Shown here: positions 21,636 through 50,820 of the stretch, piece after piece
Layout of the letters: each line of letters opens with the position of its first letter
Position numbering within the stretch: position 1 is the first letter of the stretch
Source of the DNA: Thermoproteota archaeon
GTDB lineage: Archaea; Thermoproteota; EX4484-205; JAAOZP01
Length of the DNA stretch: 64,000 bases
Assembly: GCA_038848185.1 (NCBI GenBank)
Contig: JAWCNV010000010.1
Span: 1,361 to 65,360 of the forward strand
Direction: 5' to 3'
Position numbers and translations under genes: made by a program
The notes under the pieces: model-generated
What the model was told of the DNA's origin: nothing
Databases searched by the model: none
Seen by the model: only the letters and a program-made list of their open reading frames with translations

Positions 21636-21644
21636 CCAACAGTA

Positions 21645-21660
21645 ATCTTTTTCTTTAATC
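21645..21660 (+). terminator. T-tract terminator candidate (ATCTTTTTCTTTAATC)
   Basis: Pyrimidine/T-rich tract 12 nt after the stop at 21635. Confidence 0.35.
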
Positions 21661-21715
21661 AGTATTTAAAGCCTAGGTTGCTAAGTGCTAGGGGAAAAAT
21701 TTTTAAGGGTTAGCA

Positions 21716-24700
21716 ATGGGGCTTTCCTTCATGCCGGTAAAAGCGAGGATACTTATGCTGGTTTATCTGCTTATTATTCTTTTTGCACTTTTCTCCATGA
21801 AAGTGAACGCTACTCCCGATAGCCTGATAGAAGTCTACGGCAGAGTTCTTAATGCTATGGATGGAAGCCCGGTTGAAGGAGCCACTGTTCTCATCCGGGA
21901 TGTTTCAGACCCGTCGATAAACCCTGTTCCGGGAGCAGGAATTTATATCACGGATGAGAAGGGGTCTTACGTGGCAGCTTCCCCTTATATTCGGATTGGT
22001 CACTACTATAGGATTTATGCTTTCAGAGGGGAGCTTCCACAGGGGCCTTTTGACTATGTTCCATCTAAACCCTTAACGTTAAAAATTGAAGAGGGTAAGA
22101 GTTTAAACATTTCTTTCAGGCTGGTTCCCGCTGCCTGCCTTATACTTGAAGGGGACATAATGTATGTTGAGGCCACTGGAACTGCCTTCAGGACCTCGGT
22201 AAGTATTGTTGACCCGTATACGGGAAGCCCGCCAGAAGTGTATGGTGCAGATTATGTTTCAACCTATTGGGCTTCTTCAGACTCTTGGTTCCTAGGCTTA
22301 GCTGAGAGGGTTGTTGTAATACCTGCCAATAAGAAGGTTTACTTAAGGGCAGACTCTTGGTTTCGAGTTGGAACCTACCTAAAGGCTTTCTCCTTCCTCA
22401 TTGATAATAATGGAGAAGGTTTCTCACTGCCTCAAGGTGGCATGCAAAATGTCAGTATCTGGGAGTACCCTTTAAGGAGAAGTTTAGAAATGGTGAGGGA
22501 TGTGCATTCAGAGGTTCTGCAGAAAACCGAGGATTTCTCTAGGTCTGGTTTCATAGTGTTTGATGAGCGGCAACGGCTTGAAGCTGCACGCCAAAAGTAT
22601 TTAGAGTCTCAAGGCCTAATTTATAGTAATCCTAGGGAAAGCTGGTATTCCATGAGAGAGGCTTATACGGAGATTTTGGCGGTTGATAATACTTTGAACT
22701 TCATGAAGTTCGCAGTAGCCACGGAAGCAGTAAGGCTTCCTATTTTTCTATCGGTTATGGCGGTTACGCTGGGCTTCTTTTCTTTTGAAGAAATTAGGAG
22801 AAAATTCTTATCCACATTAATATTTTATCTACTGCTCATATTTTTAATATTCCTGATATATCCTGGTGTTAGTACTTTCAGTAATGAGGATGTTAGAAAC
22901 TTCGTGATCTCGTCACTCATATCAATCTCAATTACTCTGGTTATTGTTTTCTTAATACCGAGGGTTTGGAGAGAACCCAGGGTTGAGGGGGAGGTTTCTC
23001 TTAGAAGTGTATTGAGCATCATTTTTTCAATGTCGAAGAGACAGGTGAGGAAAAGAAGGCTTAGAAGTATTTTCACTTTCCTGAGTCTCTGTATAATGGT
23101 TATGACATTTACTGCACTAACTTCCTTTGGAACAGTTTATGGGCTTAAGTATGAGACCACACCATTTACTAGTTCTAAAAGCGGGTTCCTAGTAAGGATG
23201 AGCAATATGGGTAATCTAACTTTCACCCCTATATCACCATCCGATCTTTCAGTTTTGAATGAAACGAATGAGTTATCTTATATTTCACCTAAGGTGGAAA
23301 GCTTAGGAGACGATCAGGCACTTGGAGAGTTGCTGTCGAGCTCGGGGCACCTCTTAAAGTTTTACGGGATCCTTGGAATAGACTTTAGCAATGAATGGAG
23401 ATATGTTGATGTAACGAATGCAATAACCGGAGACCTGCCTGCAGGGGGTAGTTCTGAAGAGATTGTAGTAAGCTCGCCAATGGCTGATGCATTAGGCATA
23501 AGTATTGGCGATTATGTAAATATATATGTGCGTGGAATAAATGAGCCGATAGAAACCGCTAAAGTTGTCGGTATCTTCAGCGAGTCAACTATAGGGTCAC
23601 TCACAGATCTCGGAGGTGGTAACTACCTGCCCCTGAGGTTTCTTAAGGTTGATGATAGGGTGACGGCTCGGCCATGTAATGCGAGCGACATATTTCTTAT
23701 GGATTGGAGAGGACTGCTCAGCTTGCAGTCTAAAGTGGAGTCTTTGCAACCTAGCGGTACACTTCAACTAGCAGCTATTTCAAGGGTGGCTTTCTCACTT
23801 AGGGAAGATGTGGATGTCGATCTTTCAAAACTAGTTAGACGGTTGACTTTTGTCTTCGGTTATGTTGTGAATATTGTGGGGCAAAACCAGGTTGAAACAT
23901 ACTCTCTAGGGTATTTCTACGAGACTAAGGGTATTGGCGAGATGATAATACCGATCATAATGGTCATGCTTAATACCGGTTCCATAATGCTCAATGTAGT
24001 GTATGAAAGACATAGGGAGATGAAGACTCTGACACTCTTAGGACTGAATCCTGTCCATATCGGATTGATTTTTGTGGCTGAAGCAATCATAATTGGTCTA
24101 ATAGGCGGGGGAATTGGATACGTTGTTGGATTAGGCTTCCAAAGGGTTATAGTTCTTTTTGGACAAGACCTTATGGTGAAGTCTAAAATAGAATGGTGGT
24201 GGAGCTTCATAGGTCTAGCGCTTTCTCTGTTGGTGTCTGTGCTTTCTTCTTGGAGAGCGGCGGCAGTAGCCGTCAAGATATATACCCCCTCAATGGTCAG
24301 GAAAGTTAAGACAGGCAAAGAGGAGAAGAAAATTAGGGAAGAAGAAATATTCAGGATTTTCCAGGGTAGAGAAGTTTCTATGCCTATAAGACTGCATCCT
24401 GTCGAGGTCGACTTCTTCACTGGATATGTGATTACGCGTCTTTCAGAGATGAAGTTTGGGTTTGCTGATCGGGTGGAGGACTTGGAAGAGATGAAGCCCC
24501 AACAGTTTAAGGATGGAAGCGTCCATAAGGGAGTCCACTTTAAGTACTTAAACATGATAAAGGGTCAGCTTCTCGGAACCAAAAACAGGGTCCTCTGCAT
24601 ACAGGATCCTGGGAAAGACTTTTTCAGAGTTTCTCTCGTGTATGAGCCAACTGTGCCAGGGATTCCTGAAGCGGTGGTTAAAAGAGTGGTGGAAATAATC

Positions 24701-24760
24701 AAAGACATATGCTACTCGTGGGTTAAAGAAAAAGACAGGATAGTCGTAGGCTTCAAATAG
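21716..24760 (+). CDS. Large membrane protein: signal/TM, carboxypeptidase-regulatory-like ectodomain, 3 TM, MacB/FtsX-type permease unit, conserved non-ATPase cytoplasmic C-terminal domain (cassette A, 'M' subunit)
   Basis: 1014 aa. Ectodomain VYGRVLNAMDGSPVEGATVLIRD (CarbopepD_reg/prealbumin-like). MacB-type TM1 KRQVRKRRLRSIFTFLSLCIMVMTFTALTSFG (around 23040-23130). FtsX core VVYERHREMKTLTLLGLNPVHIGLIFVAEAIIIGLIGGGIGYVVGLGF (around 23995-24140). About 160-aa cytoplasmic tail homologous to the tail of 38108-41134, no Walker A. Confidence 0.7.
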   Translation: MGLSFMPVKARILMLVYLLIILFALFSMKVNATPDSLIEVYGRVLNAMDGSPVEGATVLIRDVSDPSINPVPGAGIYITDEKGSYVAASPYIRIGHYYRIYAFRGELPQGPFDYVPSKPLTLKIEEGKSLNISFRLVPAACLILEGDIMYVEATGTAFRTSVSIVDPYTGSPPEVYGADYVSTYWASSDSWFLGLAERVVVIPANKKVYLRADSWFRVGTYLKAFSFLIDNNGEGFSLPQGGMQNVSIWEYPLRRSLEMVRDVHSEVLQKTEDFSRSGFIVFDERQRLEAARQKYLESQGLIYSNPRESWYSMREAYTEILAVDNTLNFMKFAVATEAVRLPIFLSVMAVTLGFFSFEEIRRKFLSTLIFYLLLIFLIFLIYPGVSTFSNEDVRNFVISSLISISITLVIVFLIPRVWREPRVEGEVSLRSVLSIIFSMSKRQVRKRRLRSIFTFLSLCIMVMTFTALTSFGTVYGLKYETTPFTSSKSGFLVRMSNMGNLTFTPISPSDLSVLNETNELSYISPKVESLGDDQALGELLSSSGHLLKFYGILGIDFSNEWRYVDVTNAITGDLPAGGSSEEIVVSSPMADALGISIGDYVNIYVRGINEPIETAKVVGIFSESTIGSLTDLGGGNYLPLRFLKVDDRVTARPCNASDIFLMDWRGLLSLQSKVESLQPSGTLQLAAISRVAFSLREDVDVDLSKLVRRLTFVFGYVVNIVGQNQVETYSLGYFYETKGIGEMIIPIIMVMLNTGSIMLNVVYERHREMKTLTLLGLNPVHIGLIFVAEAIIIGLIGGGIGYVVGLGFQRVIVLFGQDLMVKSKIEWWWSFIGLALSLLVSVLSSWRAAAVAVKIYTPSMVRKVKTGKEEKKIREEEIFRIFQGREVSMPIRLHPVEVDFFTGYVITRLSEMKFGFADRVEDLEEMKPQQFKDGSVHKGVHFKYLNMIKGQLLGTKNRVLCIQDPGKDFFRVSLVYEPTVPGIPEAVVKRVVEIIKDICYSWVKEKDRIVVGFK

Positions 24761-31955: not shown

Positions 31956-32105
31956 ATTAGAAGAAATGCTTAAAGGACGCATCAAGTAGCTTTTTATACT
32001 GTCTTTTTATGAGGAAACGTAAAGTAATGTTTTAAAGGTTTTTTCAGGAAGCAATATTTAAATCTCCTGAAGAGGTTGTATCTTTATATGGGGCATGAAA
32101 GCGGA

Positions 32106-33263
32106 ATGAGGATGGGAGTAAAACCTTTTGCCGTGGCCTGCATATTCTTGCTACTAGTGTTAAAGTCATATTCTATTCTGATTAGCGCACAATTAGAAGG
32201 CATGTTCCAAGTAACTGAGGAAGATAATGAAGTAGAGGTGGCTTATCTTGAAGCCGGTCTAGAGAAATTCAAGGTCATTATAAACAAGAATGGAGGTATC
32301 ACAGAGGTTCAGGTATCTAACATACCATACACCAGTGTCGCCGGCACACAAGTTTGGAGCCTATGGGAGCAGACATGGAACACTGATCCAATGGCACCCC
32401 CAGTTGTTGTGAACAAGGGTGACTACGTTGAAGCAAGGTTTTACGGGAAGTACCGGACCGCTGAACTCTATGTGAAAACCAATTACACTATTTCGAAGAC
32501 TGGATTAATCCTCGTCTCATCCATCATCGAGGCTAAGAGGGATGAGCCATTAATTATGCAGACAGCATGGATGGTCTACTTCTCAACACCTATCTTTGCA
32601 AACGAAAAGGCTTATATCAAGTTTGAGAAAGAGGTAACGGAAGTGCAGCTTCCTGCATCTGTGACTAGTGGCTCATTCTATGGCGGTCAAGATGTCGTCT
32701 ACTGGGTTGACTTCAGCAAGCCCACTGCGGGAATTGCCTTCATAAATATGGCTCCAGGCTCTGAAGATTGGTATGAAACCACTGTGAGAGATGAGAGGCA
32801 ATATGGATACCATGATGTCTACTCCGTATACTTTGCCCACACCGCCTATGGAGAGGGAGCCATGTCCATGGGTGACAAAAGGGTCTCAAAGGTTGCCCTA
32901 TACATTCACGGTCAAGGAGGCTACGAAGGTAACAAGGAGATTCTAGATCTAATATCGGATATTGCTAGTACAAGTGTTGAATGCGAGAAAGCTCTTAAAA
33001 ACGTTGGGGAGAATACTGAAGCTGGGCGGCTGGCTTCCCAAGCAATGGAAAACGTTAACTCGGGACTTGAAAAACTCCTTAAGGGCGACTTCGAAGGTTC
33101 TGAGACTGACCTTGGAAACGCCAAGAAACTGCTTGAAGAAGTCAAGGGCATCGGTGGAGTGTTTGAGAAATCACTTCCTGCAATCGTAGGAGTGATAGTA
33201 ATCGTCGTCATAATAGTGGTGATAGTTACTCGACGTAGAAAAGCAAAGAAAACAATTTCTTAA
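32106..33263 (+). CDS. Secreted protein with C-terminal TM anchor (…IVGVIVIVVIIVVIVTRRRKAKKTIS); paralog of 9863-11056
   Basis: Start chosen at ATG 32106 (MRMGVKPFAVACIFLLLV; the ORF-track TTG at 32076 overlaps the TATA element TCTTTATATGG). Shares NGGITEVQVSNI, KTGLILVSS and VALYIHGQGGYEGNKEILDLI blocks with the paralog. Confidence 0.65.
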   Translation: MRMGVKPFAVACIFLLLVLKSYSILISAQLEGMFQVTEEDNEVEVAYLEAGLEKFKVIINKNGGITEVQVSNIPYTSVAGTQVWSLWEQTWNTDPMAPPVVVNKGDYVEARFYGKYRTAELYVKTNYTISKTGLILVSSIIEAKRDEPLIMQTAWMVYFSTPIFANEKAYIKFEKEVTEVQLPASVTSGSFYGGQDVVYWVDFSKPTAGIAFINMAPGSEDWYETTVRDERQYGYHDVYSVYFAHTAYGEGAMSMGDKRVSKVALYIHGQGGYEGNKEILDLISDIASTSVECEKALKNVGENTEAGRLASQAMENVNSGLEKLLKGDFEGSETDLGNAKKLLEEVKGIGGVFEKSLPAIVGVIVIVVIIVVIVTRRRKAKKTIS

Positions 33264-33528: not shown

Positions 33529-35205
33529 TTATTTCTTCCTCTTATTCTTATAGATAATCCCTACGATCATCATGACCACTATGAGTAACAGCCCGATTAT
33601 AGCGTATTGCATGGGTGTTGGAGCTGGTGTCGGTGTAGGAGTTGATGTGGGAGTGGGAGTCGGGGTTGAAGTTGGTGTGGAAGTAGGTGTCGGTGTTGGT
33701 GTGACTGTTGGCGCCGAAGTAGTAAAGTAGTCTATGTAGAGATCGCCGCTCCACGCCGCAACATTCCACTGACCTATTTGAACACCCAGTTTTCTCACAG
33801 CATTTTCCCAAGTAATGTCTTCTCCACCGAGGTCCCAAGTAACTTGAGTCCAGCTTCCTCCAGCTAGGTTTATCGCTGCACTATTCTTCCAGTCCCAGGT
33901 GGCGCTCTGCATGAATATTTGTGCTTTAGCATCTTGCGGAACCCAGACCCATACGGAGAGTAGCTTATCCTGAAAATCTGCTAGGTTGCCCTCAGCAAAA
34001 TATACACATACTCCACCAGCAGCACCGTTTGATGCATCGAAATATGTCTTTAAGCACCCAGCTCCATGATATGCCTTCTCAACGGTCCACATAGCTGAAG
34101 TAAGAGCACCTTGCCCGACGTTTGGGTCGACATCCCAGCCCTGAGTATCTGTCTCAAAATCAAACAGCACCTCCCCAAATACCGGGGTTGGTGTAGGGGT
34201 AGGGGTGGGTTTAGGCGTCGGAGTAGAAGTGGGGATGGGTGTTGGCGATGGAGTAACAGTTGGTAAACCCAAAACTTCTCTTATTGCATTCTCCACCTCA
34301 ACGGTGTATCCTCCATATTGCTGGTAGACCTCTAAGACCCGTTCCACGATATTGGTGTAGGGTTCATAACCGCCAGTGCCATGGAAGAAAAGTGCCATCT
34401 CAGTTACTCTTTCCTCGTTTTCAAGCATAGCGCCCTGTCCCCATCCACCGTGCCAGAAGGTTACGATGAATTTCAGTTCATCCCAGCCTCTTCCATCCTG
34501 TACTATAAAGGCAAGGTTAGCCTCAGGGTTAAGGTTCATAAGGGTGACACCGCCCTCATTCACGCTTAGGTCTACCCAGTTTGGCGGAGGTTTGATAATT
34601 TGAGTGACATCTTGATTTATAAATGTGGATGGTAGGTTTAATTCTTCGGTGCCCCACAAATAATTAATATATATGTTTTTACCGGAATACTCCTCTGTCT
34701 TTAACTTGACAACCCAGCCTGTTGTCCTTATGTTAGGGGCTCCTCCAGATGGTGCTCTCATCGTCAGCCTTATGAATACGAAGCCGAACTTAGTTACCGT
34801 CACCTCCGTAACCAAACTGACAAGATGGGTTTTCGTCTGACTGTAACACGTTATTTTGGTATAGGTATCCCTCTCCTCTATTGTTGGTTCATCGACAACT
34901 GTTCCCCATGTCTGTTCCCAGTCATCCATCCAAATGAAGCCTGCTGCTCTTTCAGCAACCTCTACTCCTCGGCTTCTAAGCATGTTTATTCCACCAGTTT
35001 TCCAGAGCTCGATGTAGAAGAGTTCATTATCCTGAGGATCATAAACCCAGACATCTATTATATTACCGGTTTCACGTGGCTGAACCACGATTTTATTTTC
35101 CTCCTGCGCATAAACTTGAATCGGAAAAGGTTGGAAACAAAGCTGTATAAAGTTTAGACAGACGAACATTACTAGAATCATTATTGTTTCCTTCCTCTTG
35201 ATCAT
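33529..35205 (-). CDS. Modular surface protein: signal peptide, surface-paralog domain, Pro/Thr linker, CBM-like beta-sandwich, Pro/Thr linker, C-terminal TM anchor (cassette B terminal gene)
   Basis: 558 aa. Domain 1 homologous to the 397/395-aa paralogs (LWKTGGINML...TKFGFVFI; ALFFHGTGGYEPY). Linker 1 PTVTPSPTPIPTSTPTPKPTPTPTPTP (about 34198-34282). Domain 2 FDFETDTQGW...EKAYHGAGCLKTYF...LSVWVWVPQDA...LYIDYF homologous to the insert of the GH5-like enzyme at 5171-7955. Linker 2 PTVTPTPTPTSTPTSTPTPTPTSTPTPTPAPTP (about 33613-33717). C-terminal TM IIGLLLIVVMMIVGIIYKNKRKK. Confidence 0.75.
   Translation of the reverse strand: MIKRKETIMILVMFVCLNFIQLCFQPFPIQVYAQEENKIVVQPRETGNIIDVWVYDPQDNELFYIELWKTGGINMLRSRGVEVAERAAGFIWMDDWEQTWGTVVDEPTIEERDTYTKITCYSQTKTHLVSLVTEVTVTKFGFVFIRLTMRAPSGGAPNIRTTGWVVKLKTEEYSGKNIYINYLWGTEELNLPSTFINQDVTQIIKPPPNWVDLSVNEGGVTLMNLNPEANLAFIVQDGRGWDELKFIVTFWHGGWGQGAMLENEERVTEMALFFHGTGGYEPYTNIVERVLEVYQQYGGYTVEVENAIREVLGLPTVTPSPTPIPTSTPTPKPTPTPTPTPVFGEVLFDFETDTQGWDVDPNVGQGALTSAMWTVEKAYHGAGCLKTYFDASNGAAGGVCVYFAEGNLADFQDKLLSVWVWVPQDAKAQIFMQSATWDWKNSAAINLAGGSWTQVTWDLGGEDITWENAVRKLGVQIGQWNVAAWSGDLYIDYFTTSAPTVTPTPTPTSTPTSTPTPTPTSTPTPTPAPTPMQYAIIGLLLIVVMMIVGIIYKNKRKK
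33600..33720 (-). repeat. Low-complexity coding repeat (GGTGTnGGn)n encoding Pro/Thr-rich linker
   Basis: Visible in sequence as tandem GGTGTTGGAGCTGGTGTCGGTGTAGGAGTTGATGTGGGAGTGGGAGTCGGGGTTGAAGTTGGTGTGGAAGTAGGTGTCGGTGTTGGTGTG; a second copy at about 34190-34285. Confidence 0.8.
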
Positions 35206-35388: not shown

Positions 35389-36060
35389 CTAACCTGTAGG
35401 ACGCTTAGCTACTGATTCAATAGCCTTCTTGCCTAGTGAAATGATGATCCTCCATACTTCTAGCCAAGCGGCTAGTAATGTAAATATGAGGCCAATCCCA
35501 GATATGAAAATGCCTAGACTCCATTGTGATTTTAGGAAACTGCTATCATAAGATGTTTCGCTTGATGGTGGCGGAAGCCCGCTGAAGACTGTTATCCGCG
35601 TCCAGCCTTGGACGAAGACACCTAAACATATCATCATCAGCGTCGTCCCAATGGTTAAGCCCAAGGCTCTTTTCGTCCAGGTTTTTGCTAAAGCACTAAT
35701 GATAATTATTATAATGGCAATGGGCTGTAGAGTAAGAACACTAGATGTAGGCGGTTTATCCCATCGCCCAGAAAAGACGAGTTTCAGAGTGGTCTCATCA
35801 TACTGTTGCCATAGAGGGTAGACTTTCCACTGCACCTCTCTACCATCTAAGTTACCGTTTAACTCGTACCAAGGAAGGAATAAGCTTACTGTGAGCAGTG
35901 CTCCGGCGATAAGCCCCAGACTGTTTCTACCGCCTTCCAATGGGTCGGGTCGACGCTGACTGTTTATAAAACTAACTCTTAAGCATGATGCATAGAGAAA
36001 AAGAAATAGGGTTTTCCTCTTAGAATGGGAAGAAGAATCTGATGATGCCGAGTACAGCAC
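35389..36060 (-). CDS. Small multi-TM membrane protein, cassette B-specific
   Basis: ORF-track GTG start at 36060 overlaps the upstream gene by 41 nt; an in-frame TTG at 35940 (…PDP-L-EGGRNSLGLIAGALLTVSLFLPWY) would give a 183-aa, non-overlapping protein with about 4 TM. Start uncertain. Confidence 0.45.
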   Translation of the reverse strand: MLYSASSDSSSHSKRKTLFLFLYASCLRVSFINSQRRPDPLEGGRNSLGLIAGALLTVSLFLPWYELNGNLDGREVQWKVYPLWQQYDETTLKLVFSGRWDKPPTSSVLTLQPIAIIIIIISALAKTWTKRALGLTIGTTLMMICLGVFVQGWTRITVFSGLPPPSSETSYDSSFLKSQWSLGIFISGIGLIFTLLAAWLEVWRIIISLGKKAIESVAKRPTG

Positions 36061-37993
36061 TGAGGAATAGCGCTAGGTTCCAGCCAACCATTATTCCAAC
36101 TGCAAGTGGAAGCCCCTTGTTCTCCCAGAGCGGGACTCCGCCTACTCTGAATGTTATCTTCTTGAGTACGTATGCGATCGTCCAGCTTGTTAGCATGAAG
36201 GTGTTGACTCCTGCCACACCGGCCCATACTCCTATGGGGTCGAGTGGGAACTTGAACCATAGCATTCTTGCTAAGTATATGACAACTATTACTATTCCGC
36301 CAGCTATAGCTGACCAGACCCAATTCCAGTCGGGCGACGGGTACTGCTGCATCCTAGTGGGATCATGGAGCATGTACATCCACCATCCATCCGTAGTTAG
36401 GCTCCTGTAGAGTTTTGATCCAAACATGTGTCTGAGCTGGAGTGCGAGTGGGAATGAGACTATTGCGGAGACCACCATTGAAATGGTCATTGCTATAGCT
36501 ATATCGCGGAGGTTCGTGCCAGTAGCCTTTGCTATTCTGAATGTAATCATGACGTCAGAGTTATTTGTCCAGTTGAGAACGTTCTGGGGTCTATTTATCA
36601 TAAGGTAGTCATTCACCATAGGTGCCGTAACCTTGCTTGCAGTTACACCCGTATACATCCAGTTGATCCAGCCTGGAGACTCCATCCAGTCGCCGAGCCA
36701 TGGGCCTCCGTAACCAGCGCTTCGCGCACGTACGCTCCCATGAAGGAAATGCACGAAAATTATCATGCCTGCCCCTAGGAGGCTGGTTGCACCTATTTCG
36801 ACATTTGCAACAAATAGGAGCACTATTGCCACAAAAAATATGATGCAGCTGAACCTGAAGGGTATCGGTTCTTGAGCATCCACCTTAGGGTCAGGTTTAC
36901 GAGCCCACTTTAATGTTTGAACAAGGTAACGCCAGTTTAAGACAATCCATGTCAATATTATTGCGGTAACCATGCCGTATGATGCCATGGCATAGAAGTA
37001 GAATGGTGCTCCCTGTCCCAGCACATCTCGCTTGGTAGTTACCTCCGAGACTGTTAAGGCAGTCGAGTAGTAGCCAAAGTAATAAGCTATCTGAGGAAGG
37101 ACGATCATGAATACTATGTTAGAGATAATTCCTGAGAGCAGTATATCCGTAGGTATCAGGTAGGCGAAAGCTATTGCTGAAGGATTGAACTGTAAGCCGT
37201 TCAGACCTACCAGCGTCTCCTTAAGTGGCGTTTTAGTAGTATCTATAGTGAAGAGAGCCCAAGATATCCAGGGGTCCTTTCCCAAACCATATATGTCTGG
37301 GAACCATGGGAACACATATTTCAAAGCCTGCGGCAGGAATATCAGAAAGCCTATTATACCGCCTATCAAGAGAAGTAGCCTCCTTCCCTTCCTTTCCTCA
37401 GCCTTTGAAAGGTCCATAATAAGTTCAGTGCCCGTGTATGAGGAAGGATATGGAAGCGCTTCCACATCCATCCATTGGCGCCTATAAATACTCATTAGAC
37501 TGAGCATGAAGACCCACCATAGTATTGAAAGCAGTATCCATCCTGAGAGCGCAGGCAGATATTCTCCCCACGGTACTTCAACTCCTCCTTTAAGCTGGAG
37601 ACGTGCAATATCCAATGTTGGACCCCAGAGCATTGAGAACCATTGCCTCCACTGGGGGTTGTATAATCTTGAAGTCAACATGTTATCAAGTATACCCATG
37701 GGGACATTTCCATAGGAGTACATGACCGTGACTGTGAATGTAGCCCAGAGTACTGTGAGAAGCTTCGCATTTATCTTCTTCAGCCTCGGGAGCCCCTCCC
37801 CCAGAAGTAGAAGTATACTTAGGATTATCAGGCCTATGTTTCCAGGGCTGAAAGTACTGCCTCCCACCCAGCTTGGGCTGAAAGCGGTCACCGTTATGCT
37901 GAATGCTGAGAGAATTGCTGCTATAATCGCTGTGATAACCATCATCAAAGGAGTCATTATTCTTGAGGGAACTTCAGCCGCTTCTTCGGCCAT
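36020..37993 (-). CDS. Polytopic Trp-rich membrane protein, subfamily P2 (cassette B)
   Basis: 657 aa; MAEEAAEVPS start; VEALPYPSSYTG motif; C-terminal GGVPLWENKGLPLAVGIMVGWNLALFLSAVLGIIRFFFPF homologous to 18044-20032. Confidence 0.65.
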   Translation of the reverse strand: MAEEAAEVPSRIMTPLMMVITAIIAAILSAFSITVTAFSPSWVGGSTFSPGNIGLIILSILLLLGEGLPRLKKINAKLLTVLWATFTVTVMYSYGNVPMGILDNMLTSRLYNPQWRQWFSMLWGPTLDIARLQLKGGVEVPWGEYLPALSGWILLSILWWVFMLSLMSIYRRQWMDVEALPYPSSYTGTELIMDLSKAEERKGRRLLLLIGGIIGFLIFLPQALKYVFPWFPDIYGLGKDPWISWALFTIDTTKTPLKETLVGLNGLQFNPSAIAFAYLIPTDILLSGIISNIVFMIVLPQIAYYFGYYSTALTVSEVTTKRDVLGQGAPFYFYAMASYGMVTAIILTWIVLNWRYLVQTLKWARKPDPKVDAQEPIPFRFSCIIFFVAIVLLFVANVEIGATSLLGAGMIIFVHFLHGSVRARSAGYGGPWLGDWMESPGWINWMYTGVTASKVTAPMVNDYLMINRPQNVLNWTNNSDVMITFRIAKATGTNLRDIAIAMTISMVVSAIVSFPLALQLRHMFGSKLYRSLTTDGWWMYMLHDPTRMQQYPSPDWNWVWSAIAGGIVIVVIYLARMLWFKFPLDPIGVWAGVAGVNTFMLTSWTIAYVLKKITFRVGGVPLWENKGLPLAVGIMVGWNLALFLSAVLGIIRFFFPF

Positions 37994-38107
37994 TTTTTAC
38001 ATCGTTGATAAAAAATGACTTGCTGTATATAAAACTTACCTTCGTGAAATATTTATGTTCGCTTCATTCAGCGGATTGCAATATTACGTTTAAACTAGGT
38101 TGAGGTT

Positions 38108-41100
38108 TTACATTCTCGGAGGTGCTTTATGAGCCGAGGGTCTTCTTTTAGTCCAATCTATCGCGATATCATAGACTAGTTTCATCACTCTTTCTCTTAT
38201 TACCTCAGGCATACCTTCCTGCTCAGCTGTTGAATGGAGATACATTCTGAACCATTCTTCACCCGGCTTACACTCCAACCTTATCTTATTAGACATAGAG
38301 AAGGTTTTGCCTCTCTGTACAAACACGTACCTGAAGCCGAGCAAATACATTTCAGTTCCATCCGGTGTCTTCACGTTCTCTATTTGACCCAGATCCTCTA
38401 CCCTCTCAGAGAATCCTCCAGTGCGTTCCTTAAGCCTGTCTTGAAGATGACCCGTTAGGAACTCAACTTCCTCCCTCCTAGCCTTTATGGGTATGGAGAG
38501 CACACGTTCACCATATGCCTTGTATATCTCCTCATGTCTCTTAACTTCCTCCTCTGGAGTTAGCTTAACCTTTCTCTTAAGCGAAGGCACAGCTAGGCTT
38601 GCTGCTTTCAAGGATGGTGGTATTGCGGAAGCTACGGATATGAGTAGACCCACTACAATGCTTAGCATACTGGCCTCCCAATGGAGGTTCTCAGAAATAC
38701 CGACTTGGATAAATCTTGAAACATAACTCATGGTTCTGAAGAAGCTTAAGCCCAACAAGTATCCGAAGCCTCCACCTAATAGGCCCATGGTTGCAGACTC
38801 CGCGATAAAGACTAGGGCTATGTGCATCGGGTTGAAGCCGAGAGTAGTATAGATGAATATCTCTCTCCGTCTCCTGTCAACGACATCATACATAAGCCTC
38901 ATTAAAAACATCATTAAGATTATTAGCGGTGGAAGTATGTCTAGGAACCGTATCTCAATCATCGTCCCCAGATAATAGTGTAGAATTTTACCTTCATGAC
39001 TAAGCCACACGTGGAATCCTCTTGCCCATGCTTGGGTTTGAATGAAACTCGTCACAGATGCATCTTCAGGATTATTGAATTCGATTATCAATCTCGAGAT
39101 TGAGATCGGTAGTGAATAGGGTTTTGACGAAAGCTCAAGTGCCTTTTGCAAGCTTAAGATTATCACTTGGGAGGCATTGCAATACGCTAACTTGCCCTCA
39201 ACAATGACTCTAGGAGTATAAGGTTCACCGTTTAACTCCTTCTTGTTGTTAAACTCATCATCGTTGAACACGCCGGCAACTTTCACTGGGACTTCGAATA
39301 CAAAGCCTCCGGAAGAGAACTTGAGCGTAACATTGTCGCCAGGTTTTACACGAAGGGTTTGAGCAGTAATATAGGAAACCATTATGGAATAATCGTTACT
39401 AATGTAACTTCCACTAGCCAGCTCAAGGCTAACATACTTCGTATCCAGCTCGGGGTTTATACCTATCATCCCGAGTAGCGAGGCCCTCCCGTTTTCAGAT
39501 ATGAGCTGAACGGAATATTGACCAATCGTGGGTAGTGACTCCATTTTCGGAGAAACAGACTTCACATTTGTCTCATTTCTAATCTGTGCCATAGTGATAA
39601 TGTCGATTGGTACAAATAAACCCTCTGTTTCTCCAATGTTCTTCATAAACACCCATTCTTCAGAAGAGCTTCCGACAGTCTCAGAGTTTAAGCCGAATAT
39701 TGAGGTTACTGACGTTAAAGTCGTGGCCATCGAGATAAGTATACAGATCGACACTATGATCAGGGTGGAACTGAACCTTCTGAGCTTCACATACCTCTTA
39801 CCAAGCGTGAACGCTACTGCTAGTGCAGACCTTAACGGGACCTTCGTTGGAGAACTTGCCTCGTGAATGATTTTTTGAAACAAAGACATGAATAGTAACC
39901 CGGAAAGGAATGCTGCTGAAACCGATAAGTAGAATAAGTTTGAGAACCTGGTTAGTATCAAAGGTATTCCTGGATAGAGATAGTAGAAGCATGCATTAAT
40001 TATTGTGAATGACAGGATGAAGAGGGGCAATCTAATTGTTAGCTTGCTTTTCTCCGTGATGAAGAGGGTAAGCATGATGGAAAACACGGTTAAGAATATG
40101 GGTAGGAGCAAGGCGCCTTTCTCAGCAATATTCTTCATGCCTTCAATCTCGTTAACAATATATCTTGTAGCATAGACATATGCTTCCCTAAGTTTTCCCT
40201 GAAGTTCAACCGATATTTCACCGTAATTTATCTTTTCTCTGGCTTCCACTATCCTATCATCAACCTTTTCCTTAGCATCACCCTTAAGAGACGATAAGAA
40301 GAAACCGAATCTCTCAGCCTCATATATTTTCTCCCACATTAATTTGGAGGCTTCTTCAACTTTTGACAAAGACCATGAGTATGCAGATATTGTTATGTCA
40401 ATACTCTCAAGAGCACCCTGGTGCAGGGTGAAGGGCTTGTCACCATTCCTTACGATGAAGGTTTGGTCAATAACTCCAGGTTGTGAAGCGATCACTCTAA
40501 GCTCGATAGGTCTATTCGCAGGGACGATAACTATTGTCCAGTAGCTGGTTGAGATCACTGGGCTGAGCCAGTTGGGGTTAACGAAGTATGATGTAACATT
40601 GTCCCCGTAGAATGGAGTATAATCTCCAATATTGGGGTCTATTGCGCTGTTAAGAACCTCGCCACTCTCTGGGTCGATAACCTGAACTTTCAGAGAAGTC
40701 GAGTACCTTGCCGTGAAAATGTTCCATGCCTCGCCAGTTATGTTTAAGGCTGCTCCAGGTACAAGCCTTAAGTCTAACTCTATCGTTTCTCCAGGCTCCG
40801 GGAAAAGGGTTTTTTCTACGGTGGATGGTGCAAAAACCATGAACCCGTTCTCCTCCTTGTATGCATATACTCTGTATGAATGTGGAAAGCCTGATTCAAC
40901 CTCCAGCTCATAGTATCCTGCGGAGTCTGTCTCCAGAACGGCGAGCAGTCTCTGCCGATACCAGTCTATTATCACTACGGAAACGCTTGACAGAGCATTC
41001 CCATTAACATCGGTTACTCTTCCACGTAGAACTGCTGTTTCACCCCCTGTCTGGGCTGAGACGCCTATTAACATGGTTCCGAGGAATAGGTAAAATGTCA

Positions 41101-41134
41101 GGATGGCTATTGTTCTTTTTCTCATTACTAACAC
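38108..41134 (-). CDS. Large membrane protein: signal/TM, carboxypeptidase-regulatory-like ectodomain, 3 TM, MacB/FtsX-type permease unit, non-ATPase cytoplasmic tail (cassette B 'M' subunit)
   Basis: 1008 aa; AVLRGRVTDVNGNALSSVSVVIID...AGYYELE (CarbopepD_reg-like); MacB TM1 KRYVKLRRFSSTLIIVSICILISMATTLTSV; FtsX core MYDVVDRRRREIFIYTTLGFNPMHIALVFIAESATMGLLGGGFGYLLGLSF; tail VEFLTGHLQDRLKE...FSERVEDLGQ homologous to VDFFTGYVITRLSE...FADRVEDLEE of 21716-24760. Confidence 0.7.
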   Translation of the reverse strand: MLVMRKRTIAILTFYLFLGTMLIGVSAQTGGETAVLRGRVTDVNGNALSSVSVVIIDWYRQRLLAVLETDSAGYYELEVESGFPHSYRVYAYKEENGFMVFAPSTVEKTLFPEPGETIELDLRLVPGAALNITGEAWNIFTARYSTSLKVQVIDPESGEVLNSAIDPNIGDYTPFYGDNVTSYFVNPNWLSPVISTSYWTIVIVPANRPIELRVIASQPGVIDQTFIVRNGDKPFTLHQGALESIDITISAYSWSLSKVEEASKLMWEKIYEAERFGFFLSSLKGDAKEKVDDRIVEAREKINYGEISVELQGKLREAYVYATRYIVNEIEGMKNIAEKGALLLPIFLTVFSIMLTLFITEKSKLTIRLPLFILSFTIINACFYYLYPGIPLILTRFSNLFYLSVSAAFLSGLLFMSLFQKIIHEASSPTKVPLRSALAVAFTLGKRYVKLRRFSSTLIIVSICILISMATTLTSVTSIFGLNSETVGSSSEEWVFMKNIGETEGLFVPIDIITMAQIRNETNVKSVSPKMESLPTIGQYSVQLISENGRASLLGMIGINPELDTKYVSLELASGSYISNDYSIMVSYITAQTLRVKPGDNVTLKFSSGGFVFEVPVKVAGVFNDDEFNNKKELNGEPYTPRVIVEGKLAYCNASQVIILSLQKALELSSKPYSLPISISRLIIEFNNPEDASVTSFIQTQAWARGFHVWLSHEGKILHYYLGTMIEIRFLDILPPLIILMMFLMRLMYDVVDRRRREIFIYTTLGFNPMHIALVFIAESATMGLLGGGFGYLLGLSFFRTMSYVSRFIQVGISENLHWEASMLSIVVGLLISVASAIPPSLKAASLAVPSLKRKVKLTPEEEVKRHEEIYKAYGERVLSIPIKARREEVEFLTGHLQDRLKERTGGFSERVEDLGQIENVKTPDGTEMYLLGFRYVFVQRGKTFSMSNKIRLECKPGEEWFRMYLHSTAEQEGMPEVIRERVMKLVYDIAIDWTKRRPSAHKAPPRM

Positions 41135-41142
41135 CTCTTAAA

Positions 41143-43107
41143 CTAGTATGGCAATAGCCATACCGATCTTCTCATTAGGAAGATTGCTGAATATAGAGTA
41201 TTCATCATACCATCCCCTAGCATAACTCCGATCACCATCATGTTTCGATACCTGTACCAACGATCCTTACCAATTATTTGCGAAAACAGTCTGCTGCCAA
41301 GTAGCGACCCTATTAGAAGCGCTTGCGACCATGCTATCGGATTTACTCCGCCAGCGTTCCACCAGAACCCGCCGCTTATGAAGGAAATTAGGAACCAAGG
41401 TGCGCGAAGCACCAAGTCCATCACCGCGTAAACTATTGAGCCTACAGCAAATGAGCCAAGGATGAGTTTATCGTCGAAGAAGCGTCCTGTCCATGTCCAT
41501 TGAAGATTTCTAACAAACTCTGCAGCCTCCGTGACCCATCCAGTAACAGTATAGGGGTACGCTTGCGACGGAAACGGCTGTATCGACCAGAACAGGTTGA
41601 CAAATAGGAAGCTGCTAAGCAGGCCCAATACAGCTACAAGTATAAACGCCTTAACATAGTTGCTGTGTCTGACTCCACAGATATCTGCCCCCCTAAGGGC
41701 CTGAGCTATATCCCCACCGCCTTGAAAGACCTGTATCGGTGCGAAAAGGATAAGTTGACTGGTAAACCCTGAATAGTGAACTATTAGTTCCTTCTGATAG
41801 GGGATGTTGAGGCTACCGTAGGTAACACCTGCTGAGAAGGTTGCTACAAATGATGCGAAGAAAGACCATCCCATAGTATATGCTATGATTAAAGGCAGGA
41901 TACCTATGAGATCAGGCACAAGTATAAGGTTCAGCCCTATAGAGCCCACGGTTGCAAGGAAGAAGATGCCGAGCAACAAGTAGGGGCTCGGCATTTTTCC
42001 ACCTATCTCGCCAACCGCCCTCATCTCCTTCAGAGTGTTGACGAGCCTCTTGAATACCGTTGGATGCAGGAGAAATGGTATGACTATAGTTGCAAGAGAC
42101 AGGCCTATGTGGATGCTTATGAAGAAGTAGATGACAGACCTGTCAAGTATTTGCCAGCTTTCCCAACTCTTTATTGCCTGAATATTAACTTCTGGTGGCC
42201 AAAGGTTCATGGCGGTGAACAAGTGTGTTCCAACAAAGTAGTATGCAAGAGAACCAAGAAACTGGGCTACGGCAACGCCCGGCGGGAGTAGGAAGCCCGC
42301 TACGTAATGCACCGGGTTGATCGAGACTGTGTAGGTTGCCCCTGGGAATAGATCCACTAGAAACCTTGTGAGGTCTATAGCCTGAGGTATTGAGGTGCCG
42401 CCTCCCCCAAGTATGTTGTAAATTACGTTTGGGATAAAGCTCCTAACAGTGTTTATAAGCACTCCCGCGACCGCGGACAGCATAAGGACTCTGAGCGTTG
42501 TCGGTTCCCTCTCTGCTAGGGTCAGCACTGTCCTAGCTTCAGCTGTGGCAGCTGGGAACTCTAGCTTTTGTACTCTAACATAGAGGGCGTAGGCGAAGTA
42601 TCCGATTGAAATATTCGCCATAACGTTGAATGTTATCGTGAGAACATTGAGGAGTATAGGTATTAGTAGGGCGGAGTCAAGCAGCACCCAGCTCTCCAAG
42701 TAGAGTCGGGATGCTAAAGAAGGGCTTGGAGCCCACCAGTCAGGTATTATGTTGGCTAAGCCGTATATTAAAGGGTATTCTGTGCTCCTAATGTACGTGT
42801 ATCTGATTGGAGCTAGGAAAGTCATGGGCAGGGCTCCCCACCAACCGGTGATCCCGCCGAGGGCACCTGTTATCCCTCCCAGAGCAGTTATGATGAAAGT
42901 TTCCTCCTTAGTAAGCGGGGAGCCCAGAAGCCTAGCTAACTGTGTCCATAGGAGTATGACTATCCACGCTTGGAACGGTAGCCATTGCCCGCTAACAAGG
43001 TATAGGTAAATTACTGCAGGCTGAATTATGAAGGAGCTGAAGATTATTGCTAGAACAGTCTTCCATGTTAATCCTTTTCCAAGCGCTTCTTGTTTCTCTT
43101 GAGCCAT
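41143..43107 (-). CDS. Polytopic Trp-rich membrane protein, subfamily P1 (cassette B)
   Basis: 654 aa; homolog of 16062-17942; QKLEFPAATAEART motif; C-terminal MLGDGMMNTLYSAIFLMRRSVWLLPY vs LSLGDGLFSTILRVLTLIGRSVWLKPY. Confidence 0.65.
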   Translation of the reverse strand: MAQEKQEALGKGLTWKTVLAIIFSSFIIQPAVIYLYLVSGQWLPFQAWIVILLWTQLARLLGSPLTKEETFIITALGGITGALGGITGWWGALPMTFLAPIRYTYIRSTEYPLIYGLANIIPDWWAPSPSLASRLYLESWVLLDSALLIPILLNVLTITFNVMANISIGYFAYALYVRVQKLEFPAATAEARTVLTLAEREPTTLRVLMLSAVAGVLINTVRSFIPNVIYNILGGGGTSIPQAIDLTRFLVDLFPGATYTVSINPVHYVAGFLLPPGVAVAQFLGSLAYYFVGTHLFTAMNLWPPEVNIQAIKSWESWQILDRSVIYFFISIHIGLSLATIVIPFLLHPTVFKRLVNTLKEMRAVGEIGGKMPSPYLLLGIFFLATVGSIGLNLILVPDLIGILPLIIAYTMGWSFFASFVATFSAGVTYGSLNIPYQKELIVHYSGFTSQLILFAPIQVFQGGGDIAQALRGADICGVRHSNYVKAFILVAVLGLLSSFLFVNLFWSIQPFPSQAYPYTVTGWVTEAAEFVRNLQWTWTGRFFDDKLILGSFAVGSIVYAVMDLVLRAPWFLISFISGGFWWNAGGVNPIAWSQALLIGSLLGSRLFSQIIGKDRWYRYRNMMVIGVMLGDGMMNTLYSAIFLMRRSVWLLPY

Positions 43108-43123
43108 TTCATCCTCCTCCTGT

Positions 43124-46100
43124 TTAAGCCTCCTTCTGTAATAGTTCCCCTAATTTTTCACCCTCCTTAATATAGTGTTCTCTCAGGCTTGGAGGCATTG
43201 TCCTCCATATGAGAAGCTGTCTGCGCTGAGTATCTATGAACGCTTTGTTAGAGGTTATCCAGTTCTTCGTAATGCCGCTTCTTCTAACGAAGTATAGGGT
43301 CAAAGTATATCTTTTCATCTGGGACACGGCTTCCACATCAAAATCCTCCACTATTGCAAGGTCGAACGGTGCAAGCCTTATTCTAGAGTGTAGCCTTTTA
43401 ACCACTTTATCGCCCTCCCTCTGCTCGCTGAAACTTATTTCCTCAGGTGCAAATAGCCCTGTCTTCTCAAGACCGCTATAGGCTTGGAGAAACTCTTTTA
43501 TGAATGCAAGTATACCCATTAGTTCCCTTTCACTTGTAGCCACGAAGGGAAGCGGCACGGTCCAGTAGTCACCAACCGGCTCCGGGATTTTCCATTTACG
43601 TTCAAGACTGGGTGTCACAAGCTGCCACGCTTTTAAAGCGGGATAAAGCGTCGCCACAAGTTGTATAAAGATGGCGAGCAATATGACGATGAATATGAAG
43701 GATGAAGCGAAATTGGGGAAGAACTCAGTAAAATTATAGAAGCCAAGCCTTGTCATCGCCGATATGCCGACGATTCCAAACACGTAGCCAAGTACACTGC
43801 TCAACAAGCCATAGACAATGGATTCTGACAGGAATATTCCTGCTGTCTGGCTTGGAGAAGCCCCGACCACGACGTAGACCGAAACCGATTTTATTCTTTC
43901 ATAGAGTGTTCCAATTGTTATGTTCAGTATTGATATCCCAGCTATTATTAGAGGTATGATAAGGGTCTCAGCACCCATGAAGGTAAACCAAGACCTAGCT
44001 GTAAGCTCCCAAACATCCCCCATGGTCCAGCCCTCTAGGCTGGTATACTTAGTTAAACCATAGATGATATATGTGTCGAGCCTATAGACGAGTTCACGTG
44101 CAAAAGGCTCTATTTCAGAATCGTTGAAAGGTTTAATTGCGATACTCATAAGCTGTAGGGAGGATGGACCGAATAATTTTATAGCGAGGTCGAACGGTAT
44201 GATGGTGACCTCGTCGCCAAGCAGGTGTGGCGGGACTGCCCCTATGCCTGTCCCGATTACAATAGGGTCCTTAGGTGTTATTGGCTCCCCATCCAAATCT
44301 ATAAGCCCGCTGGTAAAACCCATCTCTTCGGCACCACCACCGTAGAGCGCGCTACCGTCAAACAGCCCTATTACAGTGAGATTAAGCCCCCAGATTGCTA
44401 TCTGGCTTCCCGGCCCTATCGTAGAATTCAGTTCTTCAGAGAGCCTAGACGCCAATGATTGGCTTATGAGTATGGAGTATAGCTCTCCAGAGTAGAACCA
44501 TCTTCCTCTAACCCCTATTCTGCTCCATATCCCTGTAACTGATTGCTCTTCAGGAGCCATTGCAAGTACTGCATAGACTCTGGCTAATTGTTTGGAAGCG
44601 TTCCAGTATATGTAAGCCCTACCGCCTGATCCAGCTGGGGGATAATACCAGCCTCTCGGAACGACATAAGCCCTGTCACTTAGCTCATACTCCAGCTGGT
44701 ATAATAGTTCTATTGGTATAGCCGTCCAAGGTCTCTGTCTTACTAATATGCCGCTATAGGAGACAGGTATATCGACATTCTTCTCCATTCCCATGGGAGC
44801 GACCTTTCTAGGCTCCGCGACGGATGTTAGTGAGGTGAAAGTTATGAGGGCGAATGTTATTAGAGTTGTTGATGTTAACGTTAGTATTGTTCTAAAGGGT
44901 CTTTTCTTCATCCACTGCACACCTAAACCTAAAGCTGTTGTTAGGAGTGCGCTTGTTGTCGAGGCGGCTGCATGTACTCCTAAGATTTTTGAACTTACTA
45001 TTCTGGTGCTTGTTGAAGCCTCGGTGTATAGAAAGGTTAATAGGATGACTATAAGGGAAGCGACACCCAAGCTTATCAATATCATTAACAAGTTGTTTGC
45101 AAGATGAAAACTTGGATGAAATAAGAGTAGCAGTATAGTCAGCGCCATCGTAATTAATATTACTCCGCTTGCCCTCTTTAAACCCGAATACCCGAGTATG
45201 AGCCTTTCAAAGACGTATGCAAAGGGCAATAGTAGCAAGAAGAAGAGGGCTGTCGTGGCTATTACGTTTTCAACAAGAATTCTTGTTTCAGCATATGCCT
45301 TCTGCTCATAGCTCCAAACTGGGTATGATAAGCCGTATGCTTTCGAGTATTGATTCTCATTCAGTGAGACAAGGGCATCATCAAGGTATCTTTTTGAAAG
45401 ACTGTGGTAGAGAAGTATCATGGGGTTGATTACCCCATAGCTCATTGATGTTGAAACTCTAGCATCATTCAGGGAGAAGAGTCCCTCCGCGCATGCAAGC
45501 GGACCATAGTTTACTATGATTGCTTCCCCTTTCTCTCTAACCCTATACCCACTGAGGCTCCTCATATCCTTGCCAGTGAGATTAGCTAGAACACTCCAGA
45601 CCATTCCTGTTCCACTATGGTATATCACTATCTCTATTGGTTCTCCAACTTCTGTAAAGAATACGTGGTCTCCAAAGACGGTCGACCCTGTCCACTTGCT
45701 CCAACGCACAGGATAGCCATGGGAGAAAGCGTTGTAAGCTGTGGGATTTAACGAGCTAGACAGGTCCCTCGGGTTTAGCACACCCTGAAGCACGATTGAG
45801 CCGCATTCAAATAGGGGTGCGTAAGCCCAGATGTTAGAGGCAGTTATTGCAACATCTGTTCTAGCTATTCTTCCTCCCGCACCGAACCTGTAACCCCAGT
45901 CTAGGGCCATATAGACTGCTCCGTTAGACGAGTTAACGGCCAAGGCGAAGAAATAAGTCGGAGCATTCTGGCCTGTGTATGGCTTCAGACCCTTGATTGT
46001 TGCTACACCATTCTCATCAGGCTTCACTATTACTGAGAAGGTTCCGGTTGCCCCAGAACCTAGGCACTCGGTTCCTGTGGTAACCCCTTGGAAGGAGCCT

Positions 46101-50814: not shown

Positions 50815-50820
50815 GACGCG

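Follow-up and report, generated by a model that had tools for sequence, protein, structure and literature searches.

A putative cell-surface glycan-binding protein with a CBM59-like module in an uncultured hot-spring Thermoproteota archaeon

The DNA analysed here, a stretch of 64,000 nucleotides (nt) from contig JAWCNV010000010.1 of a Thermoproteota archaeon (hereafter the window), encodes on its minus strand (33529-35205) a protein of 558 amino acids (aa), which we consider, with a probability of roughly 0.55, to be a cell-surface glycan-binding protein of this uncultured hot-spring organism. It is predicted to consist of a signal peptide, an N-terminal domain (N-domain) with a confidently modelled galactose-mutarotase-like fold, a carbohydrate-binding module (CBM) that is remotely related to CBM59, and a C-terminal transmembrane (TM) helix, with the CBM enclosed by two linkers rich in proline and threonine (PT linkers). 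Once exported by Sec and relieved of its signal peptide by cleavage, it would be kept by its C-terminal helix in the membrane as a protein whose two extended linkers, probably O-glycosylated, would act as stalks that hold both folded domains off the membrane. The CBM59-like middle domain most likely binds β-1,4-mannan/glucomannan or a related β-glucan, and the distal N-domain most likely acts without catalysis as well, in glycan binding or in docking. Between them, the two domains would fasten plant-type hemicellulose to the cell surface, near an extracellular glycoside hydrolase (GH), a GH5-mannanase-like enzyme, and DUF6785/FtsX membrane machinery, with which the protein may cooperate. Oligosaccharides freed there could enter the cell for processing by the cytoplasmic GH5, GH3 and cellobiose/mannobiose-2-epimerase-type enzymes encoded in the same region. 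We infer glycan binding, ligand specificity and surface localisation from sequence comparisons, and favour mannan/glucomannan or β-glucan as the ligand because the relatives of the module are CBM59 and CBM44, because the same module resides within the mannanase-like enzyme, and because catabolic genes lie nearby.

Multi-domain anchored CBM proteins, CBM59- and CBM44-type modules and galactose-mutarotase-like domains are each of a known kind. What appears to be new is the combination of these parts, the archaeal CBM59-like module, an N-domain family with a confident fold, an apparently permuted module insertion within a catalytic barrel, and a recurrent link to DUF6785/6784 and M28-FtsX genes. 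Literature searches on PF21253, DUF6785/6784 and archaeal CBM59 returned nothing specific, and we found no report on any of the features that we count as new for this locus. To our knowledge, very little is known about the capture of plant-type polysaccharides by uncultured hot-spring Thermoproteota. The protein overturns no current concept; it would carry what is known of CBMs and surface binders into a new lineage and a new architecture and, if it does bind glycans, its thermostable module and linkers could serve as affinity or targeting tags.

Layout and integrity of the 558-aa gene

The gene is a single open reading frame (ORF) with an ATG start in the ORF list of the window. It comprises the following parts:

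33529-35205, minus strand: whole gene, a predicted type-I membrane-anchored surface protein of 558 aa (ORF list; independent assemblies)
35107-35205, minus strand: putative signal peptide, residues 1-33, with a KRK n-region, a hydrophobic core and presumed cleavage between VYA and Q (read from the sequence)
34264-35106, minus strand: N-domain, residues 34-314 (similarity to paralogs; fold from AlphaFold2 (AF2) and Foldseek)
34183-34263, minus strand: PT linker 1, residues 315-341, with 12 Pro and 10 Thr in 27 residues (composition)
33715-34182, minus strand: CBM59-like module, residues 342-497 (Pfam PF21253, Mann_GBD_bact, and profile matches)
33613-33714, minus strand: PT linker 2, residues 498-531, with 13 Pro and 15 Thr in 34 residues (composition)
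33532-33612, minus strand: putative TM helix, residues 532-552, and basic tail KNKRKK (read from the sequence)

All of the parts and motifs on which the four-part layout of the initial annotation was based are present in this ORF. An identical 558-aa product is called independently on three Logan contigs, and a 519-aa form with an alternative start is deposited in three NCBI metagenome-assembled genomes (MAGs) as 'hypothetical protein QW304_06380 [Thermoproteota archaeon]', for example on contig JAWCPA010000009.1 (GCA_038870495.1). Since the same product occurs in independent assemblies and MAGs, we regard the gene as real and not as an assembly artefact. Among 1.84 billion representatives, no second protein has this architecture, and a relative lacks the gene at the syntenic site, which might be taken to indicate a non-functional chimera, be it an artefact of assembly or binning or a fusion in decay. 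We find this hardly credible, given that the ORF is intact and recurs in the three MAGs and three Logan contigs, that family-conserved residues are kept in both of its halves, and that signal peptide and anchor are undamaged.

By alignment, the N-terminus is equivalent to those of the paralogs and family members described below, and the design of the TM anchor is common to all family members as well as to two metagenomic module proteins. The combination of a signal peptide with a C-terminal TM helix is an established mode of membrane anchoring in archaea, and exported archaeal proteins with a class I signal peptide and such a helix display the same topology of ectodomain, TM helix and basic tail (PMC2910488). 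The 558-aa protein differs from them in having neither the fold nor a Pfam match of a substrate-binding protein (SBP), in lacking PGF-CTERM, and in bearing two linkers that flank an internal CBM. The Pfam scan yielded no SBP_bac family match, the fold of the N-domain is a supersandwich and not that of an SBP according to Foldseek, and a PGF-CTERM/archaeosortase anchor was rejected because the PGF motif is absent from the sequence. For an archaeal ABC substrate-binding protein, one would also expect adjacent permease and ATPase genes, and no ABC ATPase lies in the neighbouring clusters. Ser/Thr-rich stalks, to which the Pro/Thr-rich ones of the 558-aa protein are comparable, are found in S-layer glycoproteins and in some Sulfolobus sugar-binding proteins.

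Within the window, no other protein has PT linkers. The initial annotation had called such linkers unusual in archaea, which is overstated, as they recur in surface proteins of this lineage, namely in the ortholog of the mannanase-like enzyme from a related genome, in the two metagenomic module proteins, and in a further member of the N-domain family (P0016). The DNA of linker 2 shows a degenerate 6/12/18-nt periodicity. Database matches of linker 1 are confined to other low-complexity linkers, and in a phmmer search of the full-length protein against the PDB, the PT linkers gave the only matches; NCBIfam matches to adhesins and InlK likewise fell on the low-complexity linkers and were rejected as compositional. 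The protein contains no N-X-S/T sequon, compared to six in a 397-aa paralog and one in a 395-aa paralog, so any glycosylation would be O-linked, on the PT linkers.

The CBM59-like module and its relatives

Residues 348-492 match the Pfam family PF21253 (mannanase, galactose-binding domain-like) with 34.1 bits (E 3.8e-8) at a gathering score of 27 bits, and cover positions 1-142 of the 143 in its hidden Markov model (HMM); no other CBM family scored for the 558-aa protein in the Pfam scan, although no profile-profile comparison was aimed at CBM4/9/22/35/11, the families first suggested. With a profile of five modules, the best match in the PDB is 1wky_A (residues 316-460, E 8.6e-6), followed by 2c26_A (residues 102-250, E 0.006), which we take to be the PKD-CBM44 of C. 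thermocellum Cel9D-Cel44A. These matches corroborate the CBM-type character first ascribed to the module, and we classify it as a remote archaeal CBM59-like domain, with CBM59 and CBM44 as its nearest relatives. Of the five modules, all have Trp439 and four have Trp437, the exception being an Arg in the divergent copy of locus L004; in HMMER alignments, the two lie opposite aromatic residues in both structures (Y-T-W in 1WKY, W...W in 2C26), and we consider them candidate binding residues. The two Trp of 2C26 that align with this WxW motif are reportedly ligand-binding in the study of Najmudin et al. (2006).

The C-terminal domain of 1WKY, the mannanase Man5A of Bacillus sp. JAMB-602, is a CBM59 (PMC8952944), and ManF-X10 carries a CBM59 that has mannan, xylan and Avicel as ligands (PMC3985142). 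Like the archaeal module, CBM59 domains are about 150 aa long, have an N-terminal [FY]DFE..xGW and a C-terminal YIDxF strand, and are associated with mannanase-type enzymes. However, the similarity is remote and seen with profiles only, and the hosts differ: all 15 organisms in which CBM59 was known in 2014 are bacteria (PMC3985142), whereas here it is an archaeon. While CBM59 is a C-terminal appendage of bacterial GH5_8 and GH26 mannanases, its counterpart is found here either between PT linkers in a membrane-anchored presumed non-enzyme or as an internal, apparently permuted insertion in a GH. The CBM44 of 2C26 was matched over the whole module with a weaker score than CBM59; CBM44 binds β-glucans and xyloglucan (PMC10992016), and that of Cel9D-Cel44A belongs to a cellulosomal enzyme that has no membrane anchor.

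Word-index homolog searches with the N-domain, the module and an alignment of two modules returned nothing, and relatives were recovered only by exhaustive profile search and pattern scans. In a pattern scan of JGI metagenomes, we identified two loci, L003 and L004, with modules that are 74-75% identical to that of the 558-aa protein and pass PF21253 with 36.6 and 39.5 bits. The L003 protein (244 aa) consists of a signal peptide, the module, a PT linker, a TM helix and the tail KKKSKQ, and in the L004 protein (486 aa), the signal peptide is followed by a divergent module and then by the module, each with a PT linker behind it, and by a TM helix. In L003 (14-3522), the gene of this standalone module protein is located about 2.3 kb downstream of genes for a C25-peptidase-like and a PKD/CARDB protein, in the same direction, with PIN-like and nucleotidyltransferase-like genes in between; the PKD/CARDB protein has the same type of anchor, a TM helix followed by RRRRKK.

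That L003 and L004 lie beside C25 peptidase, PKD and GH31 genes, and not in clear mannan loci, would suit an envelope or adhesion protein that binds the surface glycans of its own cell or of its neighbours, such as S-layer glycans or biofilm exopolysaccharide. The anchor and the long Thr/Pro stalks recall archaeal envelope glycoproteins, and the absence of N-glycosylation sequons, as opposed to six in the 397-aa paralog, also points in this direction. Yet a GH5-mannanase-like enzyme contains the same module, catabolic GHs abound in the region, and the CBM59 and CBM44 relatives bind plant β-glycans, which leaves such a role a slim prospect compared with the capture of plant-type glycans. The enzyme in question and its insert are encoded as follows:

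5171-7954, minus strand: GH5-mannanase-like enzyme of 927 aa, counted from its likely ATG, with an N-terminal anchor and a predicted extracellular location (GH5 matches; ortholog)
7010-7534, minus strand: 175-aa insertion in the GH catalytic domain, a second CBM59-like module (absent from the ortholog in locus L001; module homology)

As called mechanically, the ORF of this enzyme (5171-8494, minus strand) starts with GTG and encodes 1107 aa, but reaches about 180 codons too far. Judged from the ortholog and a TM helix, translation probably begins with the ATG at 7954, which yields 927 aa and places the helix at the N-terminus. The over-extension overlaps a 235-aa ORF on the opposite strand (8157-8864). 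Without the insert, the protein matches GH5 mannanases in the PDB (8gf3, E 5.7e-6; 3pz9, E 9.4e-5), including the region of the NE acid/base motif, a similarity that is weak but significant.

Residues 374-500 of the 558-aa protein align with residues 327-467 of ORF 5171-8494 at 36% identity (E 2e-19) in blastp and at 41% in MAFFT, in agreement with the homology between the two modules noted previously. The description of the GH module as an insertion also holds. In locus L001 (JAWBXT010000028.1, 'Thermoproteota archaeon'), a 796-aa ortholog of the enzyme, 76% identical, lacks the 175-aa segment between '...RFHxxDAxWE..NIF' and 'TRxLxExALDxLDYF'; since it is missing between conserved flanks, the module is truly inserted in a loop of the catalytic domain. 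Moreover, the insert is apparently circularly permuted. It runs from the module body through a 12-residue connector to 'IFDFEKDSQGW' (7043-7075), the counterpart of which, 'LFDFETDTQGW' in the 558-aa protein and 'LYDFEESTQGW' in 1WKY, forms the first strand. Placing the FDFE segment ahead of the body in silico increased the PF21253 score from 23.1 to 31.9 bits and shifted the start of the match from HMM position 18 to 1. On the simplest reading, the permutation would derive from tandem modules such as those of L004.

L001 also bears on the origin of the 558-aa gene. Here, the orthologs of the 395-aa gene and of a 223-aa gene are directly convergent and 92 bp apart, with no 558-aa gene between them, and hence we regard the 558-aa gene as a lineage-specific addition. 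No convincing flanking repeats or spacer similarity to L001 were found around it. The best-supported reading is a lineage-specific fusion of the family N-domain with a pre-existing cassette of PT linker, module, PT linker and TM helix; a counterpart of this cassette also exists in the standalone (L003) and tandem (L004) anchored proteins, and module-PT-TM proteins of these types are the likely donors. With standalone, tandem, fused and, within a GH5-like barrel, apparently permuted forms, these presumably archaeal CBM59-like modules constitute a compact example of domain shuffling.

The N-domain family

Two further genes of the window encode paralogs of the N-domain:

32076-33263, plus strand: 395-aa paralog with N-domain, helical hairpin and TM anchor (blastp; ortholog in L001 71% identical)
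9863-11056, minus strand: 397-aa paralog with N-domain, helical hairpin and TM anchor, divergent from membrane cluster 1 (blastp; alignments)

For the 395-aa paralog, residue 11 or 13 is the probable start, and the alignment with its L001 ortholog begins at 13. In blastp searches within the window, residues ~16-311 of the 558-aa protein match the 395-aa ORF with 27% (E 1e-24) and the 397-aa ORF with 25% identity (E 3e-24), so the first part of the protein is indeed related to these two, as had been stated. An exhaustive profile search in the 1.84 billion representatives revealed a family of 26 (16 at E<1e-30), among them the 558-aa protein itself as P0001 (E 8e-123). All named members are annotated as 'hypothetical protein' and come from MAGs of Thermoproteota/Thermoprotei, and neither Pfam nor NCBIfam contains a model that matches the N-domain.

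Members of this family usually comprise a signal peptide, a domain of ~270 aa, a helical hairpin of ~60 aa, a TM helix and a basic tail. The 558-aa protein shares the signal peptide, the ~270-aa domain and its motifs (NGGI...G141...D237xR239...H275GxGGY) and has the segment of PT linker, module and PT linker in place of the hairpin, by which we consider it a variant architecture of the family. The near-invariant residues are I73, G141, P107, P227, D237, R239, H275 and G278. Among the family members, the CBM59-like module occurs only in P0001. Other variants are P0009 with five helical repeats, P0016 with a PT linker ahead of the TM helix, and P0023, in which a weak N-domain match (E 5.6e-4) is fused to a GH5 cellulase domain (PF00150, E 1.6e-27). 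The N-domain of the 558-aa protein is closest to those of P0006 and P0009 (36-37% identity), compared with 26-27% for the paralogs in the window. A recent origin as a copy of the adjacent 395-aa gene, at 27% identity, was rejected on these grounds.

Modelled by AF2 with an alignment of 23 sequences, the N-domain reached a predicted local distance difference test score (pLDDT) of 92.1 and a predicted TM-score (pTM) of 0.90. Foldseek returned 141 PDB matches at E<=1e-3, with E down to 8e-8 and TMq of 0.5-0.6, and the top matches listed are dominated by the galactose-mutarotase-like supersandwich: β-galactosidases, GH38 α-mannosidases, galactose mutarotase, YeaD and PL26. The β-galactosidases include that of T. 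maritima (6sd0, E 7.7e-8, TMq 0.60) and E. coli LacZ; the part matched is presumably LacZ domain 5, given that Foldseek reports no aligned region. Further matches include GalM (1l7k) and YeaD (2htb) at E~2-3e-6. In GH38 α-mannosidases, it is the C-terminal domain that has the galactose-mutarotase-like fold, and the fold class nearly always goes with carbohydrate-active proteins. We are therefore confident, on the basis of the model, in predicting a galactose-mutarotase-like supersandwich for the N-domain. It shares the fold with the known domains of this class and no detectable sequence similarity; while those sit in GHs or in cytoplasmic epimerases, the N-domain is typically a standalone, exported and membrane-anchored domain. 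Comparison of the family profile by hhalign with the GH97 encoded in the same window, which also has a GalM-like N-domain, revealed no relationship.

None of the 23 family members matches Aldose_epim in Pfam at E<=1, and for this reason we do not class the 558-aa protein as a mutarotase. It might still be a membrane-anchored extracellular enzyme, in which a catalytic N-domain, of mutarotase/epimerase type or novel, is targeted to a polysaccharide by the CBM59-like module. The succession of catalytic domain, linker and CBM is typical of carbohydrate-active enzymes (CAZymes), D237, R239 and H275 are near-invariant over 23 divergent members, Trp, Gln and Glu residues are conserved in the closer subfamily, and the fold class holds true enzymes, with GalM and YeaD among the Foldseek matches. 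We nonetheless judge this unlikely. The domain stays below the Pfam cut-off for Aldose_epim and every other enzyme family in all members, the identity to mutarotases is as low as 6-10%, nearly all other members have only the hairpin and anchor and no CBM, and in most of the PDB matches listed, the fold serves as a non-catalytic accessory domain, as in LacZ domain 5, the C-domain of GH38 and PL26. A non-catalytic binding or docking role thus remains our preferred reading of the N-domain.

The initial annotation had further tied the paralog family to carbohydrates, which is supported by the predicted supersandwich fold, the GH5 fusion in P0023, and GH/CAZy genes at most family loci. A rare, unannotated family of anchored proteins thereby gains a galactose-mutarotase-like fold and repeated links to glycoside hydrolases.

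Genomic neighbourhood and a possible capture apparatus

The 558-aa gene is surrounded by genes for a cellobiose-2-epimerase-like protein (best PDB matches 8h1k and 5zig, E~1e-62), a cytoplasmic GH5, which is nearest to the endoglucanase 1vjz and the bifunctional endomannanase/endoglucanase 3w0k, a GH42-like protein and a GH3, with GH4 and GH97 genes further off. This set fits the catabolism of β-mannan/glucomannan or β-glucan oligosaccharides. Immediately upstream, the gene is preceded by a group of membrane protein genes, after which it is the last, co-directional gene:

35389-47749, minus strand: membrane cluster 2, encoding M28-FtsX (1541 aa), a 654-aa protein, FtsX (1008 aa), DUF6785/6784 (657 aa) and a 223-aa membrane protein (Pfam)

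The window holds two such clusters, at 11397-24760 (plus strand; cluster 1) and 36020-47749 (minus strand), which are paralogous with pairwise identities of 28-37%. Each encodes a ~1550-aa protein with M28-peptidase, MacB_PCD and FtsX domains, a ~640-aa polytopic protein without a Pfam match, a ~1010-aa protein with CarboxypepD_reg-like and FtsX domains, and a ~670-aa DUF6785/DUF6784 protein. The 397-aa paralog is encoded at the edge of cluster 1. In cluster 1, the DUF6785 gene is followed at 20178-21635 (plus strand) by a gene whose 485-aa product has a signal peptide, a β-rich ectodomain, a C-terminal TM helix and RRRKK, and no match in Pfam or NCBIfam; the gene is placed much as the 223-aa and 558-aa genes are in cluster 2.

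Related neighbourhoods recur elsewhere in the family, which is usually multi-copy, with copies interleaved with sugar-metabolism genes. In L014 (3063-7556) and L015 (131-4624), two members from distant lineages, ~18% identical to the window protein, flank a DUF6785/6784 gene that has a GHL15 gene as its neighbour, the corresponding part of the window being 35389-37993, and the GH5 fusion P0023 directly follows a pair of MacB_PCD/FtsX and ABC ATPase genes. L012 (8105-18311) has three family copies together with an FGGY kinase, GH172, an acetyl-xylan esterase (AXE1) and a fucose isomerase, L013 (310-2727) a tandem pair beside a CBM4_9 protein, and L010/L011 (4687-8341 in L010) two copies; at further loci, the neighbours are GHL6/GH42M or GH3. 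Most of the family loci examined have GH/CAZy genes alongside, and the recurrent neighbourhood provides a first functional hypothesis for DUF6785/6784.

Cluster 2 is a possible functional partner of the 558-aa protein, which could even be an accessory or regulated extracellular subunit of M28-FtsX or DUF6785-6784 complexes, to which a glycan-binding arm was merely added and whose function would be export, envelope remodelling or signalling. The placement of a family member at the edge of either cluster, the two members that flank DUF6785/6784 in L014/L015, the location of P0023 behind MacB_PCD/FtsX and ATPase genes, and the co-directional arrangement of the 558-aa gene as the last one after cluster 2 all speak for such an association. 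In bacteria, coiled-coil partners are known to dock onto FtsX, and the helical hairpin of the family would be the candidate docking element. The 558-aa protein, however, lacks the hairpin, several family loci have no such cluster within the contig, and the literature on DUF6785/6784 yielded nothing specific. In addition, a TATA-like element (TTAATATATT) ~35-45 nt upstream of the ATG and a hairpin with a T-run after the stop codon weakly suggest that the 558-aa gene may have its own transcription unit and could be transcribed alone. For these reasons, we regard a role as mere complex subunit as decidedly unlikely.

If the 558-aa protein is instead a glycan-binding protein, as we prefer, one may speculate that the GalM-like anchored proteins, the DUF6785/DUF6784 proteins and the giant M28-MacB/FtsX proteins constitute an undescribed archaeal apparatus for glycan capture and import. 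Its capture subunit would be the 558-aa protein, armed with a CBM59-like module, and the same module would have been employed, in permuted form, in its extracellular mannanase. We consider this broader idea rather unlikely as it stands; if true, the apparatus would correspond in function to Sus systems or to binding-protein-dependent transporters. The initial annotation had already described the role as 'Sus-like', which we retain as a functional analogy only, seeing that there is no SusC/SusD and that this archaeon has no outer membrane. Pfam scans of 33 of the 36 ORFs of at least 150 aa, those taken as genes, found no TonB-dependent receptor or SusD in the window. The surface glycan-binding proteins (SGBPs) of SusE/F type in Bacteroidota and the anchored multi-CBM proteins of Gram-positive bacteria resemble the 558-aa protein in its predicted role as a non-catalytic, surface-tethered multi-domain binder whose gene adjoins GHs and membrane transport-like genes. 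They are not homologous to it, though, and are held by lipid or sortase anchors in place of a C-terminal TM helix.

Several observations weigh against the proposed function. Concerning the module, phmmer searches with a single sequence or a two-sequence profile found no match to it in the PDB, and the five-sequence profile was needed before any emerged. A single-sequence AF2 model of the whole protein has a pLDDT of 37.7, with values <50 over the module, and its predicted β-sandwich fold follows from HMM similarity alone. As the similarity to CBM59 is remote, ligand specificity is not transferable with confidence, and the second-best relative, CBM44, binds glucans and not mannan. Concerning the N-domain, the conserved polar residues D237, R239 and H275 leave some probability to a catalytic role. 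Finally, the Pfam scans found no ABC ATPase gene in either cluster of the window, which renders a role as importer speculative, and some family loci have no obvious glycan genes nearby, on contigs that are short.

Further genes of the window deserve brief mention. A DUF6786 protein (57785-58813, plus strand) adjoins a ThuA-like protein (59711-60385, minus strand) and the complete GH97 (60449-62392, minus strand), whose N and C domains and catalytic domain are all present. All three of DUF6784, DUF6785 and DUF6786 are thus represented within the one window. At 47975-54073 (plus strand) lies a NurA-HerA-Mre11-Rad50-like operon, with NurA and HerA assigned by Pfam and Mre11 and Rad50 judged from sequence, and this operon, together with related contigs named Thermoproteota, marks the window as archaeal.

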